Shown here: positions 5,117 to 18,473 of the stretch, one piece after another
How positions within the stretch are numbered: the stretch's first letter is position 1
Layout: every line of letters begins with the position of its first letter
Virus record (IMG/VR): IMGVR_UViG_3300032280_000651
Location: 1 to 64,000 of that record
Source: a virus
Taxonomy: Duplodnaviria > Caudoviricetes
DNA length: 64,000 nt
Strand: one strand, 5' to 3'
The notes under the pieces: generated by a model
Seen by the model: only the letters and a program-made list of their open reading frames with translations
Databases searched by the model: none
Told to the model about the DNA's origin: nothing
Made by a program: the position numbers and the translations under genes

Positions 5117-5347
5117 ATGGAAAAGTTTTTCTTAACAATTATGCACTCTTGGGGTTCAGATACTCCACAAGAAGTATTCTGGGGACTAAATGATTTGATC
5201 ACCTGGGCAAAAACAAAGGGGTTTGATAATAAAGGATTATTTTTTGATGATCCAATTGGTTACAATGTAGATGAAGATAAAGCACAAAAAGATAATGAAC
5301 AGTTAGTAAAAGAACTTTCAGAGTTTTTTGAAAAAAATTTAAAATAA
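5117..5347 (+). CDS. Hypothetical protein
   Basis: 76 aa ORF with AT-rich initiation region. Confidence 0.6.
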   Translation: MEKFFLTIMHSWGSDTPQEVFWGLNDLITWAKTKGFDNKGLFFDDPIGYNVDEDKAQKDNEQLVKELSEFFEKNLK

Positions 5348-5348
5348 A

Positions 5349-5380
5349 TTTGGTACAATAGAAAACTTTTTATACTTTTG
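5349..5380 (+). promoter_or_regulatory. Bacteroidota-type sigma promoter of tRNA operon 1
   Basis: TTTG (5349-5352), 20 nt, TACTTTTG (5373-5380); matches the -33/-7 consensus TTTG/TAnnTTTG. Confidence 0.75.
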
Positions 5381-5391
5381 TACTATAAAAA

Positions 5392-5423
5392 TAACAAAAT
5401 AACAAAATAACAAAATAACAAAA
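5392..5423 (+). repeat. Tandem 8-mer (TAACAAAA)x4
   Basis: Units start at 5392, 5400, 5408 and 5416. Confidence 0.9.
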
Positions 5424-5453
5424 AGGGAGAATAAACTTTTAATATATACAATA

Positions 5454-5555
5454 ATGAAAACAACTAATCTAAATATTAACTTAACGCTGAATGTCTTATG
5501 TCTAAGACAAAGACCGGGTTTTGCTATATTTAGAGCAAATGATTTTAGTTGGTAA
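5454..5555 (+). CDS. Attenuator leader peptide 1 (Leu/Arg), 33 aa
   Basis: MKTTNLNINLTLNVLCLRQRPGFAIFRANDFSW; 5 Leu (CTA, TTA, CTG, TTA, CTA) and 3 Arg (all AGA); lies between promoter and terminator. Confidence 0.8.
   Translation: MKTTNLNINLTLNVLCLRQRPGFAIFRANDFSW
5515..5523 (+). promoter_or_regulatory. Antiterminator strand of attenuator 1
   Basis: CGGGTTTTG is the exact reverse complement of CAAAACCCG (5584-5592), the 5' arm of the terminator. Confidence 0.7.
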
Positions 5556-5584
5556 TAACTGAAAGTATATCTAAATAATATAAC

Positions 5585-5617
5585 AAAACCCGAAATGTAA
5601 AAGTTTCGGGTTTTTTT
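5585..5617 (+). terminator. Intrinsic terminator of attenuator 1
   Basis: AAAACCCGAAA-tgtaaaag-TTTCGGGTTTT plus T-tract, 20 nt before the first tRNA. Confidence 0.85.
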
Positions 5618-5637
5618 ATGTAAAAAAATAAATAATT

Positions 5638-5709
5638 GGCCTCATCGTTCAACGGATAGGACTAAAGCCTTCTAAGCTTTCAATCGGGGTTCGAATCCCT
5701 GTGGGGTCA
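5638..5709 (+). tRNA. tRNA-Arg(UCU)
   Basis: Cloverleaf; anticodon arm aaagc-CTTCTAA-gcttt; GGTTCGAATCC T-arm. Confidence 0.9.
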
Positions 5710-5721
5710 CAAAATAAATAT

Positions 5722-5808
5722 GCGTCTGTGGTGAAATTGGTAGTACACGCAGGTCTTAAAAATCTGTGGTCAGGAATGACCGTGAGGGTTCGACTCCCTC
5801 CAGACGTA
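5722..5808 (+). tRNA. tRNA-Leu(UAA)
   Basis: caggt-CTTAAAA-atctg; long variable arm; GTTCGACTC. Confidence 0.9.
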
Positions 5809-5817
5809 CAAAAATAT

Positions 5818-5898
5818 GCCCCGTTAGTTCCGACTGTCTTCTAAACAGTTAAGGATAATTGGACGCTGAAAATGTAGGTTCGAGTCCTACACGGGGTA
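5818..5898 (+). ncRNA. D-arm-less tRNA-like RNA, anticodon UCU (Arg)
   Basis: 7-bp acceptor, 8-nt linker instead of a D arm, actgt-CTTCTAA-acagt, 24-nt extra region, canonical T arm. Confidence 0.75.
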
Positions 5899-5909
5899 CA
5901 AAATCACTT

Positions 5910-5994
5910 GTCGGAGTGGTGGAATGGTAGACACGCAGGTCTTAAACACCTGTGCTCCGGAAGGGGCGTGAGGGTTCGAGTCCCTCCTCCGATA
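5910..5994 (+). tRNA. tRNA-Leu(UAA), second copy
   Basis: caggt-CTTAAAC-acctg; long variable arm. Confidence 0.9.
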
Positions 5995-6002
5995 CAATAT
6001 AT

Positions 6003-6085
6003 GCCGAGGTGGTGGAATGGTAGACACGCTGGTCTAAGAAGCCAGTGTCCGAAAGGACGTGCGGGTTCGAGTCCCGCTCTCGGTA
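6003..6085 (+). tRNA. tRNA-Leu(AAG)
   Basis: ctggt-CTAAGAA-gccag; variable arm gtcc-gaaa-ggac. Confidence 0.9.
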
Positions 6086-6090
6086 CAAAA

Positions 6091-6173
6091 GCACCAGTGG
6101 TGGAACTGGTATACACGGTGGCCTCAAAAGCTACTATCTATATGATGTGTGGGTTCGACTCCCACCTGGTGTA
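6091..6173 (+). tRNA. tRNA-Leu(CAA)
   Basis: gtggc-CTCAAAA-gctac. Confidence 0.9.
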
Positions 6174-6180
6174 CAAAAAT

Positions 6181-6263
6181 GCGGGTATGGGGGAATGGTA
6201 GACCCGCCAGATTTAGGATCTGGTGTCCGAAAGGACGTGTCGGTTCGAGTCCGACTACCCGTA
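6181..6263 (+). tRNA. tRNA-Leu(UAG)
   Basis: ccaga-TTTAGGA-tctgg; long variable arm. Confidence 0.9.
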
Positions 6264-6277
6264 CAAAAATTAAAAAT

Positions 6278-6502
6278 ATGAAACTAATTAAAGTTGAAGA
6301 TAAGATATATGAAGTGAAACCTTGTTTACATTGTAAGAAGGATGAAGTAGAATATGTCGAACAAGATCTTCCTTTTAATAATGAAGGATGGGCATGTAAT
6401 TATTGTGATTCAACATATGTGATTTTCAATACTGAGATAGCTGAAGATGTTACTCTTAGAGAAGAAAGAGAAGAAAAGTTAAAAAATATAATAAAAGATT
6501 AG
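6278..6502 (+). CDS. Small zinc-ribbon protein
   Basis: CLHC...CNYC; true start ATG 6278, since the ORF-track extension runs through tRNA genes. Confidence 0.7.
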   Translation: MKLIKVEDKIYEVKPCLHCKKDEVEYVEQDLPFNNEGWACNYCDSTYVIFNTEIAEDVTLREEREEKLKNIIKD

Positions 6503-6532
6503 GTAGTAGAACAAAAAAATATGATAATATTT

Positions 6533-6563
6533 TTTGTAGATTAAAAAACTTATAGTATATTTG
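6533..6563 (+). promoter_or_regulatory. Bacteroidota-type promoter of tRNA operon 2
   Basis: TTTG (6533-6536), 19 nt, TATATTTG (6556-6563). Confidence 0.7.
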
Positions 6564-6649
6564 TACTCTGTAATAATACAGAAAGTGTTTTACACTACTA
6601 TAATTAAAGAAAAACAAAAAGGGACAATAAAAATATAATATATAATACA

Positions 6650-6739
6650 ATGAAAACAAATACTATAAATATTAATGTGATTACGATTACGAATTGTGTG
6701 AATAGCACGACTTCGGGTAAGCGATTATGTATAGTATAA
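6650..6739 (+). CDS. Attenuator leader peptide 2 (Thr/Ile/Asn/Val/Cys), 29 aa
   Basis: MKTNTININVITITNCVNSTTSGKRLCIV; codons 3-18 are only T, N, I, V or C. Confidence 0.8.
   Translation: MKTNTININVITITNCVNSTTSGKRLCIV
6712..6718 (+). promoter_or_regulatory. Antiterminator strand of attenuator 2
   Basis: TTCGGGT is complementary to ACCCGAA (6768-6774) in the terminator 5' arm; can instead pair upstream in hairpin 6690-6715. Confidence 0.65.
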
Positions 6740-6763
6740 TGACATATATTATATACAATTTAT

Positions 6764-6800
6764 AAAGACCCGAACTCAAAAAGTTTGGGTCTTTTCTTTT
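6764..6800 (+). terminator. Intrinsic terminator of attenuator 2
   Basis: AAAGACCCGAAC-tcaaaaa-GTTTGGGTCTTT plus TCTTTT, 6 nt before the first tRNA. Confidence 0.85.
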
Positions 6801-6806
6801 ATATAT

Positions 6807-6878
6807 TCTCCTATGGTGAAATGGTTATCACGTCTGACTGTTAATCAGTTATTCCAGGTTCGAGTCCTGGTGGGAGAG
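6807..6878 (+). tRNA. tRNA-Asn(GUU)
   Basis: Loop CTGTTAA; G73. Confidence 0.9.
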
Positions 6879-6885
6879 CAAATAT

Positions 6886-6960
6886 TCCTCCGTAGCTATA
6901 ATGGTTTAGAGCGGCGTTTTGTTAAAGCGATGGTTACAGGTTCGAGTCCTGTCGGAGGAG
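6886..6960 (+). tRNA. tRNA-Asn(GUU), second copy
   Basis: Loop TTGTTAA; G73; 27:43 mismatch. Confidence 0.85.
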
Positions 6961-6969
6961 CAAATATAT

Positions 6970-7050
6970 TGGCACATACCAGCCCAACCTGATAAGTTGG
7001 AGAACTGTAAATGGTTGTTGAAAATGTGGGTTCAAATCCCTCTGTGCCAA
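6970..7050 (+). ncRNA. D-arm-less tRNA-like RNA, anticodon GAU (Ile)
   Basis: 7-bp acceptor, 7-nt linker, ccaac-CTGATAA-gttgg, 25-nt extra region ending TGAAAAT, T arm; same length and layout as 5818..5898. Confidence 0.75.
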
Positions 7051-7063
7051 CAAAAAAATATAT

Positions 7064-7149
7064 GGGACTGTGGTGTAGTTGGTTAAACATCCCACTCTTA
7101 CAAAGTGGAGACGAGAAGTATAACGTAGGTTCGAATCCTACCAGTCCTA
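7064..7149 (+). tRNA. tRNA-Val(UAC) with 16-nt variable region
   Basis: ccact-CTTACAA-agtgg. Confidence 0.85.
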
Positions 7150-7160
7150 CAAAAATACCT

Positions 7161-7235
7161 TGGTCGGTATATCAATTGGTTTAGATTATCACGCTGATAC
7201 CGTGAAGGTTGCGAGTTCGAGTCTCGCCCGACCAA
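7161..7235 (+). tRNA. tRNA-Ile(GAU)
   Basis: tcacg-CTGATAC-cgtga. Confidence 0.9.
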
Positions 7236-7301
7236 CAAAAAATTAAAGGTTCGAAACAGATGGAAGTGTCAATTTTTAATATATATAAATAAAAAACATA
7301 T

Positions 7302-8018
7302 ATGTTAAAAATAGAAAAATTACAATTAGAATTACTAATAGATAAAGGACTCTCTTTAAAAATTATTGCAGAAGAATTAAATATATCATATTCGACTATT
7401 AATAGACTATGTAATAAATATAATTTAAAGTCTAAATTTAATGAGTCAAAAAATGAACTAGTTAATTGTATTGAATGTGATATAGAATTTAATGGAAATA
7501 AAAAAGAAGAAAGAAAGTTTTGTAGTAGATCGTGTTCGGTTACTTATAATAATAGAATTAAAATTTTCACAGATGATACTAAACTAAAAATAAGTAATAC
7601 ATTAAAAAGTAGAAATAAAAAAGTAATTAAAATAAGACTATGTAAAAATTGTGATAATCTAGTTGGATATAAAAAAATAATATGTGATAGTTGTAGAGTA
7701 GATTATTATCAGTATTATAGACCAGCATCAAATTTCAATTTCGATATAAATCTCTACAAAGATAAGTTTGAACTTTCATTAGTTACTAAATATGGTTGGT
7801 ACAGCCCTTCAAATAAAGGTAATAACCTAAACGGTGTGAGTAAAGATCATTTATTTAGTGTTAAAGATGGTTTCGATAATAAAGTTAGTGTAGATCTAAT
7901 AAAACATCCGGCGAATTGTAAATTAATGATACATAAGGATAACCAAGTTAAAAATAGTAAAAGTGTAATAACACTAGAAGAATTGTTAAAAAGAATAGAA
8001 GAATGGAATAAGAAATAA
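7302..8018 (+). CDS. Putative HNH-like homing endonuclease inside tRNA array 2
   Basis: N-terminal HTH, CxxC zinc motifs, C-terminal SKDHLFS...HPANC...HKDNQVK His-Me finger. Confidence 0.65.
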   Translation: MLKIEKLQLELLIDKGLSLKIIAEELNISYSTINRLCNKYNLKSKFNESKNELVNCIECDIEFNGNKKEERKFCSRSCSVTYNNRIKIFTDDTKLKISNTLKSRNKKVIKIRLCKNCDNLVGYKKIICDSCRVDYYQYYRPASNFNFDINLYKDKFELSLVTKYGWYSPSNKGNNLNGVSKDHLFSVKDGFDNKVSVDLIKHPANCKLMIHKDNQVKNSKSVITLEELLKRIEEWNKK

Positions 8019-8020
8019 AT

Positions 8021-8108
8021 GGTATAGTGCCTGAGTGGTCGAAAGGTGCGGTCTGCAAAACCGTAATGATTAATTTCATCATCGTGGGTTCAAATCCTAC
8101 CTATACCT
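8021..8108 (+). tRNA. tRNA-Cys(GCA) with long variable arm
   Basis: gcggt-CTGCAAA-accgt; U73; variable stem atga/tcat. Confidence 0.85.
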
Positions 8109-8112
8109 CAAA

Positions 8113-8199
8113 TGTAGAGACAACAAGGATGATAGGAAAAAGTATTAACTAGTTCGAATCTAGGCCGGGTCTTAACGGACCTGGCATTACAACTCTACA
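8113..8199 (+). ncRNA. Rearranged tRNA-like RNA (terminal stem, T-arm, closed 8-bp hairpin)
   Basis: TGTAGAG/CTCTACA terminal stem; ctag-TTCGAAT-ctag followed directly by gccgggtc-ttaacg-gacctggc. Confidence 0.55.
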
Positions 8200-8203
8200 A
8201 ATT

Positions 8204-8276
8204 GCCGATATAGCTCAATAGGTAGAGTGCCAACTTGGTAGGTTGGAGGTTAAGGGTTCGATTCCCTTTATCGGAT
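8204..8276 (+). tRNA. tRNA-Thr(GGU)
   Basis: ccaac-TTGGTAG-gttgg; G1:A72 mismatch. Confidence 0.85.
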
Positions 8277-8284
8277 CAAATAAT

Positions 8285-8364
8285 GCTGGTGTCGCATAGT
8301 GGCCGATTGCACCTACCTTGTAAGTAGGAATTCCACACCGCAGGTTCGAATCCTGTCACTAGCT
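8285..8364 (+). tRNA. tRNA-Thr(UGU)
   Basis: cctac-CTTGTAA-gtagg; 11-nt variable loop. Confidence 0.85.
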
Positions 8365-8369
8365 CTGAA

Positions 8370-8401
8370 AAAAGACTTCTTTTAATTAAGAAGTCTTTTT
8401 T
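8370..8401 (+). terminator. Terminator closing tRNA operon 2
   Basis: AAAAGACTTCTT/AAGAAGTCTTTT hairpin plus T-tract. Confidence 0.75.
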
Positions 8402-8485
8402 ATTTTAAACTAAATCCGTATCTTTGTATATAAATAAAAAGTAAAATATGTTGATATGGACTAATATACTTTTAATATATAGTAT

Positions 8486-9262
8486 ATGGATACAAATAAA
8501 ATAATTGAACTATCAAAAGATAAAACTCAAAAAGAAATCGCAGAAATATTTAAAGTTTCTTCTTCGACAATAGGAAGAATACTTAAAAAAAATAATATAA
8601 AAACAAATCGTTCAAGACTAAATGAAAGTAAATTATATTTTAATATGAATTATTTTGATGATATTGATACAAATGAGAAAGCATACTGGTTGGGATTTAT
8701 TGCAGCAGATGGTTGTCTTAAATCTAATAAAGTTAGACTTGTTTCAAAAGATGAGGAAGTAATAGTAAAATTTAAAAATGCTATTGAGTCAGAACATAAA
8801 ATTGTAAGATCAATAACTACTGATAAACGTAGTGGAAAAAAATATGAACTATTTATAATTTCAATAACTAATAATATATTCACTAAAAAATTAGAAAAAT
8901 TTATAAATATCGATAAAAGCAATAATTTTAATCTTCCAAAAATAGACAATAGTTTATATCCATTTTTCCTCGCAGGTATGTTTGATGGAGATGGTTCTTT
9001 TTCAATATATGGTTGTAATAAAAATAAAATTAAAGCAAGTTTAATATCTACTAAAGAGTGTTTAGAACAAATAATAAATTTATTAGAGGTAGAGATAAAT
9101 TTAAAGAAAAGACCAACAATAATAAAACATTACACAACATATAGATTTTATCTGTATAAATATAGTACGTATTTTTTAGACTATATCTATAATGAAAAGT
9201 ATAAAACAATATATCTAAGTAGAAAATATAATAAATATTATGAATATAAAAATAGAAAGTAA
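8486..9262 (+). CDS. LAGLIDADG homing endonuclease with N-terminal HTH
   Basis: AYWLGFIAADGC and FLAGMFDGDGS motifs. Confidence 0.85.
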   Translation: MDTNKIIELSKDKTQKEIAEIFKVSSSTIGRILKKNNIKTNRSRLNESKLYFNMNYFDDIDTNEKAYWLGFIAADGCLKSNKVRLVSKDEEVIVKFKNAIESEHKIVRSITTDKRSGKKYELFIISITNNIFTKKLEKFINIDKSNNFNLPKIDNSLYPFFLAGMFDGDGSFSIYGCNKNKIKASLISTKECLEQIINLLEVEINLKKRPTIIKHYTTYRFYLYKYSTYFLDYIYNEKYKTIYLSRKYNKYYEYKNRK

Positions 9263-16775: not shown

Positions 16776-16865
16776 AAAAAAGTAGTATCTTTGTAAAACA
16801 AATGAGATAAAACTCAAATAAAAATAAAAAAAGTTTGGTAAAATGAAAACTTTGTATTACTTTTG
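16763..16865 (+). promoter_or_regulatory. Two tandem Bacteroidota-type promoters of tRNA operon 3
   Basis: TTTG 16763 + 19 nt + TATCTTTG 16786; TTTG 16834 + 20 nt + TACTTTTG 16858. Confidence 0.7.
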
Positions 16866-16921
16866 TAGTATAAAATCAAAGAAAAACAAAAAGGAACAAT
16901 AAAAGTTTAATATATAGTAAT

Positions 16922-17020
16922 ATGAAAAATGTAAATGTAAATATCGTAGTTATGCCGCAGCCGATGCAGGATCAGGATCGTTTCACGAACCAGACTAACT
17001 ATGTATTTATATCACATTAA
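16922..17020 (+). CDS. Attenuator leader peptide 3 (Met/Pro/Gln/Asp), 32 aa
   Basis: MKNVNVNIVVMPQPMQDQDRFTNQTNYVFISH; codons 11-19 are only M, P, Q or D. Confidence 0.8.
   Translation: MKNVNVNIVVMPQPMQDQDRFTNQTNYVFISH
16992..16999 (+). promoter_or_regulatory. Antiterminator strand of attenuator 3
   Basis: AGACTAAC is complementary to GTTAGTCT (17050-17057) in the terminator 5' arm. Confidence 0.65.
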
Positions 17021-17043
17021 GAAATTACGTGTATAAAAATTAC

Positions 17044-17078
17044 AAATCCGTTAGTCTTTGAGACTAACGGATTTTTTT
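17044..17078 (+). terminator. Intrinsic terminator of attenuator 3
   Basis: AAATCCGTTAGTCT-ttg-AGACTAACGGATTT plus T-tract. Confidence 0.9.
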
Positions 17079-17097
17079 ATGGAATAAAATTAAATAT

Positions 17098-17439: not shown

Positions 17440-17448
17440 CAAAAATAA

Positions 17449-17522
17449 CGCGTAACGATCCACAGAGAGAGGTTACCCGACTTGGTATCGGGGTTATTGT
17501 CAGTTCGAGTCTGACTTACGCG
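17449..17522 (+). tRNA. tRNA-Pro(UGG), divergent D arm and U37
   Basis: cccga-CTTGGTA-tcggg; gtcag-TTCGAGT-ctgac. Confidence 0.7.
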
Positions 17523-17528
17523 ACGAAA

Positions 17529-17601
17529 TAGTGCTGTAGCTCAGTGGAAGAGTGTCTGGTTGTCGCCCAGAAGGTCGCGGGTTCAATCCCCGTCAGTACT
17601 G
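17529..17601 (+). tRNA. tRNA-Asp(GUC)
   Basis: tctgg-TTGTCGC-ccaga; G73. Confidence 0.85.
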
Positions 17602-17663: not shown

Positions 17664-18473
17664 ATGTATGAAAAAGTTTGTAAGTGGTGTGGTAATTTAA
17701 TCTCTGTTGAAAAACAACAATCATTTGCATCACATGTCGCTGGATGTATTATGAATCCAAAAGTAGAAGAACGATATAAAAAGAATAGTGAGCGATTCAA
17801 GGGTGTTCTAAAGGTTGAACGAATCGAAATATCTAAAGAGTGTCCTAAATGTAAAGAAATTTTTAAAGTAATTGCAACTGAATCAGAAATTAGACGTAAT
17901 AAGGTCAGATTATTTTGTTCTAGAAAGTGTTCCAATACAAGAATACATTCAGAGAAAACTAAAGAAAAAATGTCATCGGCATCAATTGGTATTATTCCTT
18001 ATAATAAAGGAGTTAAAAAAATTAAAAAATTTACTTGTCTTAAATGTGGTAAAGAAGGTATTATAAAAAGATATAACAATAAACAGAAGTATCATTCAGA
18101 ATGTTGGAGATTATCATCTGGTGGTATAAGACAGGGAAGTAGTAGAGGTAAAAGTGGTTGGTATAAAGGTTACTGGTGTGATAGTAGTTATGAACTAGCA
18201 TATCTTATTTACAATTTAGATAATTCTATTTTGATTGAAAGAAATAAAAATGGTTTTGAATATACTCATAATGATGAAAAACATTTATTCTATCCTGATT
18301 TCATAATAGGAGGTAAATATATTGAGATAAAGAATTATAAATCGGAACTTACTGATAGTAAAATATCACAATTTCCATATGAAATAGAAATATATTATAA
18401 AGAAGAAATGAAACCATTCATAGAATATGTAAAAAATAAATATGGTAAGGATTTTATAAAATTATATGAATAA
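17664..18473 (+). CDS. Putative zinc-finger PD-(D/E)xK homing endonuclease inside tRNA array 3
   Basis: CxxC repeats; CDSSYELAY...YPDF...YIEIK. Confidence 0.65.
   Translation: MYEKVCKWCGNLISVEKQQSFASHVAGCIMNPKVEERYKKNSERFKGVLKVERIEISKECPKCKEIFKVIATESEIRRNKVRLFCSRKCSNTRIHSEKTKEKMSSASIGIIPYNKGVKKIKKFTCLKCGKEGIIKRYNNKQKYHSECWRLSSGGIRQGSSRGKSGWYKGYWCDSSYELAYLIYNLDNSILIERNKNGFEYTHNDEKHLFYPDFIIGGKYIEIKNYKSELTDSKISQFPYEIEIYYKEEMKPFIEYVKNKYGKDFIKLYE

Follow-up and report, generated by a model that had tools for sequence, protein, structure and literature searches.

The window analysed here, a stretch of 64,000 nucleotides from a Caudoviricetes genome (positions 1 to 64,000 of IMG/VR record IMGVR_UViG_3300032280_000651), belongs to a 79-kb IMG/VR contig of an uncultivated phage and carries three units of the same plan (5340-5620, 6510-6800 and 16810-17080). 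Each consists of a common A-rich block in the 5' untranslated region (UTR), a short open reading frame (ORF) and a terminator of 12-14 bp, followed by a tRNA array. The second of them, unit 2, precedes tRNAs in the order Asn, Asn, Ile-like, Val, Ile, Cys, Thr, Thr and is the subject of this report. Its anatomy and conservation, the covariation of leaders with arrays, the match at the codon level and the alternative helices were established computationally, and unit 2 is likely to be a ribosome-mediated (leader-peptide) transcription attenuator gating a phage tRNA operon. Classical leader-peptide attenuation is a known mechanism; its use on tRNA genes would be new. The features of unit 2 are:

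6533..6563, plus strand: promoter-like site TTTG-N19-TATATTTG, Bacteroidota sigma-A type (-33 TTTG, -7 TAnnTTTG), predicted by motif match
6611..6649, plus strand: conserved A-rich 5' UTR block, ACAAAAAGGGACAATAAA ... TAATATATA, common to the three units of the window
6650..6739, plus strand: leader ORF of 29 codons and a stop (ATG at 6650, TAA at 6737-6739), peptide MKTNTININVITITNCVNSTTSGKRLCIV
6656..6703, plus strand: regulatory run, codons 3-18 (T N T I N I N V I T I T N C V N)
6690..6715, plus strand: segment 1:2 hairpin (protector), 10 bp, -9.3 kcal/mol, z -2.7, present in the minimum free energy (MFE) structure
6709..6718, plus strand: segment 2, the antiterminator strand, with core TTCGGGT at 6712-6718
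6728..6755, plus strand: AT-rich hairpin with the stop codon inside it; in the 2:3 state the whole hairpin falls within the loop
6764..6800, plus strand: intrinsic terminator, segments 3:4, stem 6764-6776/6782-6794 (13 bp) followed by a T run, -17.5 kcal/mol, z -5.7

Threonine (6), asparagine (5), isoleucine (5), valine (3) and cysteine (2) make up 21 of the 29 residues of MKTNTININVITITNCVNSTTSGKRLCIV, as the first-pass annotation of this DNA had counted. The same five residues account for a fraction of 0.273 in the long ORFs of the phage, giving a binomial p of 2e-7 for the 21 of 28 in the leader, and the leader is the sole ORF to reach such a fraction among the 393 ATG ORFs of 20-40 aa on the 79-kb contig. 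Regulatory codons clustered in a short 5' leader ORF, one of the marks of an attenuator, are present here as 16 consecutive cognate residues: within codons 3-18, the array serves 16 of 16 amino acids, and its tRNAs can read 15 of the 16 codons. When the nascent RNA was folded with a 28-nt ribosome mask, these 16 consecutive codons were also the only ones at which stalling would keep the ribosome clear of the antiterminator strand. The first-pass description of the leader as a five-amino-acid sensor holds in that Asn, Ile, Val, Cys and Thr are all represented in the array; it needs narrowing in that only codons 3-18 are suitably placed and in that the two ATA codons of the leader are unreadable by tRNA-Ile(GAU) under standard wobble rules. 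Its further remark that three ACG and two GTG codons stand out in the leader ORF was accurate: in the long ORFs, Thr is encoded by ACG in 3% of cases and Val by GTG in 4%. The comparison of codon usage extends this remark to all leader types, in which G-ending codons represent 24% of regulatory codons versus 10% of other leader codons and 6% of codons genome-wide (p 4e-12); these codons may either raise sensitivity, as had been suggested, or only supply G+C for the helices.

The intrinsic terminator at 6764-6800 lies between the leader ORF and the regulated genes, the position that attenuation calls for, beginning 24 nt behind the leader stop and ending 6 nt before the first tRNA. The core of segment 3 (ACCCGAA, 6768-6774) sits in the 5' arm of this terminator and is complementary to TTCGGGT at 6712-6718; the duplex has an energy of -13.0 kcal/mol, which is equalled by 0.3% of shuffles (p 0.003). 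Unit 2 therefore contains an antiterminator helix sharing a strand with the terminator, again as found in attenuators. The protector hairpin pairs CGAA (6690-6693) with TTCG (6712-6715), burying the TTCG of segment 2. Both the hairpin hiding TTCG of the antiterminator strand and the pairing of that strand with 6768-6774 had been proposed from the letters alone and were recovered here by folding; of the classical 1:2, 2:3, 3:4 logic built on them, the helices exist and are conserved, whereas the protector may not enforce termination by itself, as discussed below.

Folding under the ribosome mask links these helices to the position of a translating ribosome. With the ribosome on codons 1-17 of leader 2, the 5' arm of the terminator was paired upstream with a probability of about 0.7, and with the ribosome on codons 19-28 this probability fell to about 0, leaving the arm free; the other units behaved alike. 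Perfect complements of the terminator 5' arm, 7-9 nt in length, were found in 7 of 11 leader types (shuffle p 0.002-0.02 each). They always fall in codons 18-26, just past the sensed codons, and their sequence and register vary between types together with the terminators. In addition, segment 2 pairs with the region of the regulatory codons in the nascent RNA of 9 of the 11 types.

A further helix may connect the two ends of the leader ORF. The conserved sequence TAATATATA at 6640-6648, before the ATG, can pair with TATATTATA at 6746-6754, likewise conserved, after the stop; this pairing occurs in the MFE structures and has equivalents in units 1 and 3. On the alignment, the TAATATATA:TATATTATA helix is 84% paired without covariation, and slid registers pair nearly as well. 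Such a pairing might shut off re-initiation on finished leaders.

Conservation of unit 2 was assessed with a metagenome scan for a back-translated ITITNCVN pattern, which returned 58 hits; about half were unrelated ITITNCVN-like strings and were discarded, leaving 19 distinct versions. The 36 nt encoding NINVITITNCVN (codons 7-18) are identical in all 19 orthologues under a pattern that allowed synonymous codons in 8 of the 12 codons, and the peptide tail past segment 2 varies freely (GKRLCIV, GNEICMV, GNELCT). A fixed codon block with a free tail is the pattern that would be expected where the codons of a leader matter and its peptide does not. Substitutions at codons 4 and 6 mostly remain within N/T/I/V. 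At the level of structure, the terminator (3:4) is 98.7% paired across the 19 orthologues, with one compensatory G-C/A-U pair; the 1:2 hairpin is 98.4% paired, with three pairs switching between U-G and U-A through changes on one side only; and the nine core pairs of the stop-codon hairpin (6728-6755) are 100% paired. A diverged variant (L081) carries synonymous changes and a CCGGGT segment, which count neither for nor against the 2:3 pairing. A global tally of 21 synonymous to 68 non-synonymous changes is uninformative because class A contains indels and the selection of conserved cores was post hoc. Paralogous and diverged leaders change their composition along with their arrays. The outcome that the first-pass annotation had named as fatal to its proposal, homologous leaders that are merely AT-rich and unrelated to the downstream tRNAs, was thus not seen.

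This relationship extends beyond the window. A pattern scan led to six related contigs, of which five were taken whole, and a second scan with a back-translated pattern returned the same five. In the seven contigs together, 30 terminators have a tRNA gene immediately behind them, and in every case an ORF of 18-37 aa ends 19-31 nt upstream of the terminator. The related contigs and a published 635-kb huge phage together present 11 leader types. Besides leader 2, leaders and the arrays that they precede include:

Window unit 1: leader 1 (…LNINLTLNVLCLRQR…), Leu/Arg with every Arg codon AGA, before Arg(UCU) and five tRNA-Leu
Window unit 3: leader 3 (…MPQPMQDQD…), before Gln, Pro, Asp, Gln, Pro, Asp
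Relatives: leader FKHTSFSKSFKWFSHKF (FKWFSHKF), before Lys/Trp/Phe/His
Relatives: leader SSSSSSRSS, before Arg(ACG)/Ser
Relatives: leader ITIAIEAIGGYEAGY (IAIEAIGGYEAGY), before Tyr/Glu/Ile(UAU)/Gly/Ala
Contig G005: K-rich leader, before three tRNA-Lys
Contig G005: leader SSSRSSNSS, before Arg/Ser
Contig G005: leader QVQPTQQPDQDPD, before Pro/Asp/Gln
Contig G005: leader MRIVISYQQQQQQIDRTD (QQQQQQ), before five tRNA-Gln
Contig G005: merged leader with L, N, T, I, V and C, before a merged Leu+Asn/Ile/Cys/Val/Thr array

G005 is the most divergent of the contigs. One of its leaders, with three ATA codons and a run of G/A/S, is followed by non-canonical tRNAs resembling Ile(UAU), Gly(UCC) and Ala(UGC), which ARAGORN missed. 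The nearest published genomes are huge phages of the Mahaphage clade, for which Bacteroidetes hosts were predicted; the source paper is silent on attenuators and leaders (PMC7162821). In one genome of this clade, LR745206.1, a leader MTTMNLNMTMNLTLNVVNITLCNIRPTEG… and a terminator stand before an Asn/Arg/Leu/Val/Ile/Thr/Met array. A blastn search of 5300-8400 against a phage collection matched the tRNA genes only.

The correspondence between leaders and arrays was evaluated by permutation. For 11 non-redundant units, none of 200,000 permutations of the leader-array pairing reached the observed enrichment, and when the six classes of the close group were permuted, the true pairing took first place among 720. 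At the codon level, the codons of the productive window that are readable by the anticodons of each array under standard wobble rules were counted, and the true pairing came first in all six genomes (1/6, 1/120, 1/720, 1/120, 1/24 and 1/120). The tRNAs of its own array can read 87% of leader 2 (class B), and those of the window's two remaining arrays 0%. The match reaches individual isoacceptors: AGA codons go with Arg(UCU) and CGT/CGC/CGA with Arg(ACG/GCG/UCG), and among Ile codons ATA is matched to Ile(UAU) and ATT to Ile(GAU). By both the amino-acid and the codon permutation tests, the regulatory codons thus correspond to the products of the regulated genes, as they do in attenuators.

Upstream of the leaders, a motif TT[TA]G N17-23 TAnnT[TA]TG, which we take to be a promoter of the Bacteroidota sigma-A type, lies 36-88 nt before the leader ATG in 25 of the 30 units. 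The remaining five units have no such promoter and stand directly behind another tRNA array; they seem, from this arrangement, to be internal attenuators inside a longer tRNA transcript. There is no room for a further promoter between terminator and array, because the gap to the first tRNA is only 6 nt. The promoterless units are the class E units of G001, G002, G003 and G004 and one at about 46.6 kb in G005 (in L021, about 6540-6660). Since the A-rich UTR block is also kept in promoterless units, the block at 6611-6649 is better explained as an element of the UTR or of translation initiation than as a promoter.

From this anatomy we infer leader translation, ribosome stalling, transcriptional read-through and a physiological signal, which would operate as follows. 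Transcription would start at the Bacteroidota-type promoter near 6563, and a ribosome would translate the 29-codon leader. Where decoding is slow, with aminoacyl-tRNA limiting for any Asn, Ile, Val, Cys or Thr codon within codons 3-18, the ribosome would stall and melt or block the 1:2 hairpin (6690-6715), freeing TTCGGGT at 6712-6718. The free strand would then pair with ACCCGAA (6768-6774) once this is made, no terminator would form, and RNA polymerase would enter the tRNA genes. Where decoding is fast, the ribosome would cross segment 2 onto the stop-codon hairpin, preventing 2:3 and allowing 3:4 to form, and transcription would end 6 nt ahead of the first tRNA. The circuit would behave as an OR gate over five specificities. 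Because the products of the array are the tRNAs that read the leader, the unit would constitute a negative-feedback gauge of decoding capacity, and the phage probably makes these tRNAs only when ribosomes run short of them.

Several observations weigh against this reading. No Shine-Dalgarno sequence was found near the leader ATG, which fits a Bacteroidota host, a host that is itself inferred. An N-terminus rich in N/T/I/V is common to all leaders and inflates the apparent match of leader 2 somewhat, and a stall at Thr20 or Thr21 would mask segment 2. In the remaining 4 of the 11 leader types, the antiterminator complement is weak. The 2:3 core is 100% paired and invariant in class-B orthologues, so that it offers no compensatory changes; support for 2:3 therefore rests on the comparison of paralogues. 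The energies also leave the default state of the leader in question. As long as segment 4 has yet to be transcribed, 2:3 is favoured over 1:2 by 6 kcal/mol (-25.4 vs -19.4 kcal/mol), and the protector alone may consequently not enforce termination; the complete leader favours 1:2 plus 3:4 (-36.2 vs -28.7 kcal/mol), so the choice between the helices is kinetic. A ribosome that has crossed segment 2 and is parked on the stop-codon hairpin probably enforces termination, and an untranslated leader might, unlike the trp attenuator, read through; equilibrium folding cannot give the ribosome-free default state. Finally, extra tRNA is no help where the amino acid, and not the tRNA, is short.

The last point bears on the possibility that unit 2 is an amino-acid starvation sensor, that is, a classical attenuator reporting charging, with the tRNA output a side effect of a general starvation programme. 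In the trp and his attenuators, what the ribosome responds to is the ternary complex of aminoacyl-tRNA, whose level reflects tRNA amount as well as charging. Sensing of starvation as such is nevertheless improbable, given that isoacceptors of one amino acid are told apart by codon (AGA vs CGY, ATA vs ATT), that rare wobble-read codons point to tRNA species rather than to amino acids, and that a lack of amino acid is not relieved by extra tRNA. Distinctly improbable as well is a general translation gauge, in which leader and terminator would couple tRNA transcription to overall ribosome activity or to transcription-translation coupling and the amino-acid composition would be incidental. It would account for the N/T/I/V-rich start of all leaders and for the masking model, in which ribosome position alone sets the fold, but not for a leader composition and codon choice that shift with each array down to the isoacceptors, and the QQQQQQ ahead of five tRNA-Gln is hardly incidental.

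Strong terminators are common in this genome, with 21 on the tRNA strand of the 79-kb contig, and unit 2 could in principle be a constitutive leaky terminator or insulator behind a chance or vestigial ORF, holding tRNA transcription at a fixed low level. The permutation tests of leader-array pairing, the spacing of ORF and terminator fixed at 19-31 nt, a conserved stretch within the ORF that is complementary to the terminator arm, and a regulatory block invariant at the codon level all make this very improbable. Direct sensing of tRNA by RNA without translation, with leader codons pairing like a T-box with the anticodons of uncharged tRNAs, can practically be set aside: the leader does display many codons cognate to the downstream tRNAs, but they lie in one ATG-to-stop frame kept in all units, no specifier loop or T-box bulge was seen, an Rfam E-value scan of 5300-8500 gave no T-box hit, and the leaders matched no Rfam family at threshold, the best leader-family scores being far under the cut-offs (Thr_leader RF00506, 24.4 bits vs 55; Trp_leader RF00513, 20.8 vs 41).

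The attenuator reading of unit 2 can be set beside known systems. The enterobacterial ilvGMEDA (Ile/Val/Leu) and thr (Thr/Ile) operons of amino-acid biosynthesis are controlled by multivalent leader-peptide attenuators. These are the closest likeness, sharing clusters of codons for several amino acids, a short leader ORF, an intrinsic terminator, 1:2, 2:3 and 3:4 helices that are predicted to exclude one another, and the logic of an OR gate. Unit 2 differs from them in regulating tRNAs instead of biosynthetic enzymes, in its five specificities, in codons that match isoacceptors, and in residing in a phage of a probable Bacteroidota host without membership by sequence or Rfam family. It also falls outside the strict definition of an amino-acid-operon attenuator (trpL, hisL, ilvL, thrL), as the genes downstream are tRNAs and one inserted ORF with a helix-turn-helix (HTH). 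As in Escherichia coli trpL, the position of the ribosome would pick the antiterminator or the terminator, and the energies are comparable (about -13 kcal/mol for 2:3 and -17.5 kcal/mol for 3:4 in unit 2). Unlike in trpL, the stop codon lies six codons past segment 2 within a hairpin of its own, and 1:2 is less stable than 2:3 before segment 4, so that superattenuation without translation is doubtful. The pheST leader (pheM) likewise applies leader-peptide attenuation to a gene of the translation apparatus, with decoding capacity feeding back; the product there is a synthetase, whereas in unit 2 it would be the tRNA itself, closing the loop directly. T-box riboswitches share with unit 2 the reporting of the state of a specific tRNA by transcription attenuation, but they bind tRNA directly without need of translation, and unit 2 has no T-box motif.

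Attenuator-like sequences have reportedly been described near E. coli tRNA-Phe genes in old accounts. Phage tRNA genes are usually treated as constitutive supplements to codon usage. A full-text literature search found no description of leader-peptide control of tRNA genes, and none is given in PMC3082878 or PMC7162821. If the attenuator reading of unit 2 is true, with the sensed tRNA as its output, it would couple tRNA synthesis directly to decoding speed, the first feedback of this kind, and it would extend a textbook mechanism to a new gene class and to Bacteroidota-type phages. It would also open to direct test when and why a phage requires tRNAs of its own. A practical annotation rule would follow as well, in that the leader spells out the array and flags non-canonical tRNAs missed by gene finders, and the units could serve synthetic biology as compact modular sensors of single tRNA species.

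A broader generalization can be put forward tentatively, and we judge it slightly more apt to fail than to hold: that phage tRNA arrays are closed-loop decoding homeostats, each switched on by stalling at the codons its tRNAs read, with hard, rare wobble codons as the gauge, and that leader-peptide attenuation is, in several phage lineages, a general layer of control over tRNA supply as well as a counter-defence sensor. If so, a huge phage could renew particular tRNAs as needed, for instance when the demand of its AT-rich codon usage exceeds the host pool, or when infection brings degradation of host tRNAs or their cleavage by anticodon nucleases.

The array behind unit 2 was called with ARAGORN and Rfam and is made up of the following:

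6807-6879, plus strand: tRNA-Asn(GUU), ARAGORN/Rfam
6886-6961, plus strand: tRNA-Asn(GUU), ARAGORN/Rfam
6970-7050, plus strand: Ile(GAU)-like tRNA gene without D arm, anticodon loop CTGATAA, Rfam tRNA model 34.5 bits, missed by ARAGORN
7064-7150, plus strand: tRNA-Val(UAC), ARAGORN/Rfam
7161-7236, plus strand: tRNA-Ile(GAU), ARAGORN/Rfam
7302..8018, plus strand: 238-aa ORF with an N-terminal HTH, interrupting the array, sub-threshold HTH matches in Pfam
8021-8109, plus strand: tRNA-Cys(GCA), ARAGORN/Rfam
8204-8277, plus strand: tRNA-Thr(GGU), ARAGORN/Rfam
8285-8365, plus strand: tRNA-Thr(UGU), ARAGORN/Rfam
8368..8401, plus strand: operon-end terminator, 14-bp stem, -15.7 kcal/mol

The 238-aa ORF is missing from the equivalent position in the relative G002 and is therefore probably a mobile insertion of endonuclease type; a Pfam search of this ORF (7302-8018) gave no HNH match. 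ORFs of mobile-endonuclease type were observed within or beside the tRNA arrays at 7302-8018 (HTH), 8486-9262 and 17664-18473, with a LAGLIDADG protein and a sub-threshold NUMOD3 match among them. Between tRNA-Cys and tRNA-Thr, at about 8110-8200, lies a 90-nt element that contains CTAGTTCGAATCTAG, which resembles a T arm, and ends in a 7-bp terminal stem (TGTAGAG/CTCTACA); it had no Rfam match and was assigned no anticodon. A second tRNA-like gene missed by ARAGORN was found at 5818-5898 (Rfam tRNA model 40.5 bits, anticodon loop UCU, Arg). Like the gene at 6970-7050, it seemingly has no D arm, and the anticodons of the two, UCU and GAU, agree with the surrounding arrays. In a diverged relative of the unit 2 array, ARAGORN called a tRNA with anticodon UUA, a possible ochre suppressor (L081:1628-1706).

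In the orthologue of unit 3 in G003 (about 97.0 kb; L006), the N-terminal leader codons have been lost, the first ATG giving MKM-stop, and the internal MPQPMQDQD frame is kept. This orthologue has a different terminator, and the remaining complement is only the 6-nt ACTAAC:GTTAGT, against the 5' arm and loop of the terminator. In G005, units of promoter, short ORF and terminator also precede protein-coding genes, at about 12.06-12.21 kb (L019) and about 37.44-37.56 kb (L020, about 17440-17560). The leader of one of them, MKLMVNNRNRETDSV, contains an AGG codon, with a tRNA-Arg(CCU) 1.3 kb downstream, and LR745206.1 has a similar leader, MKTMTINNRNRLTDII.

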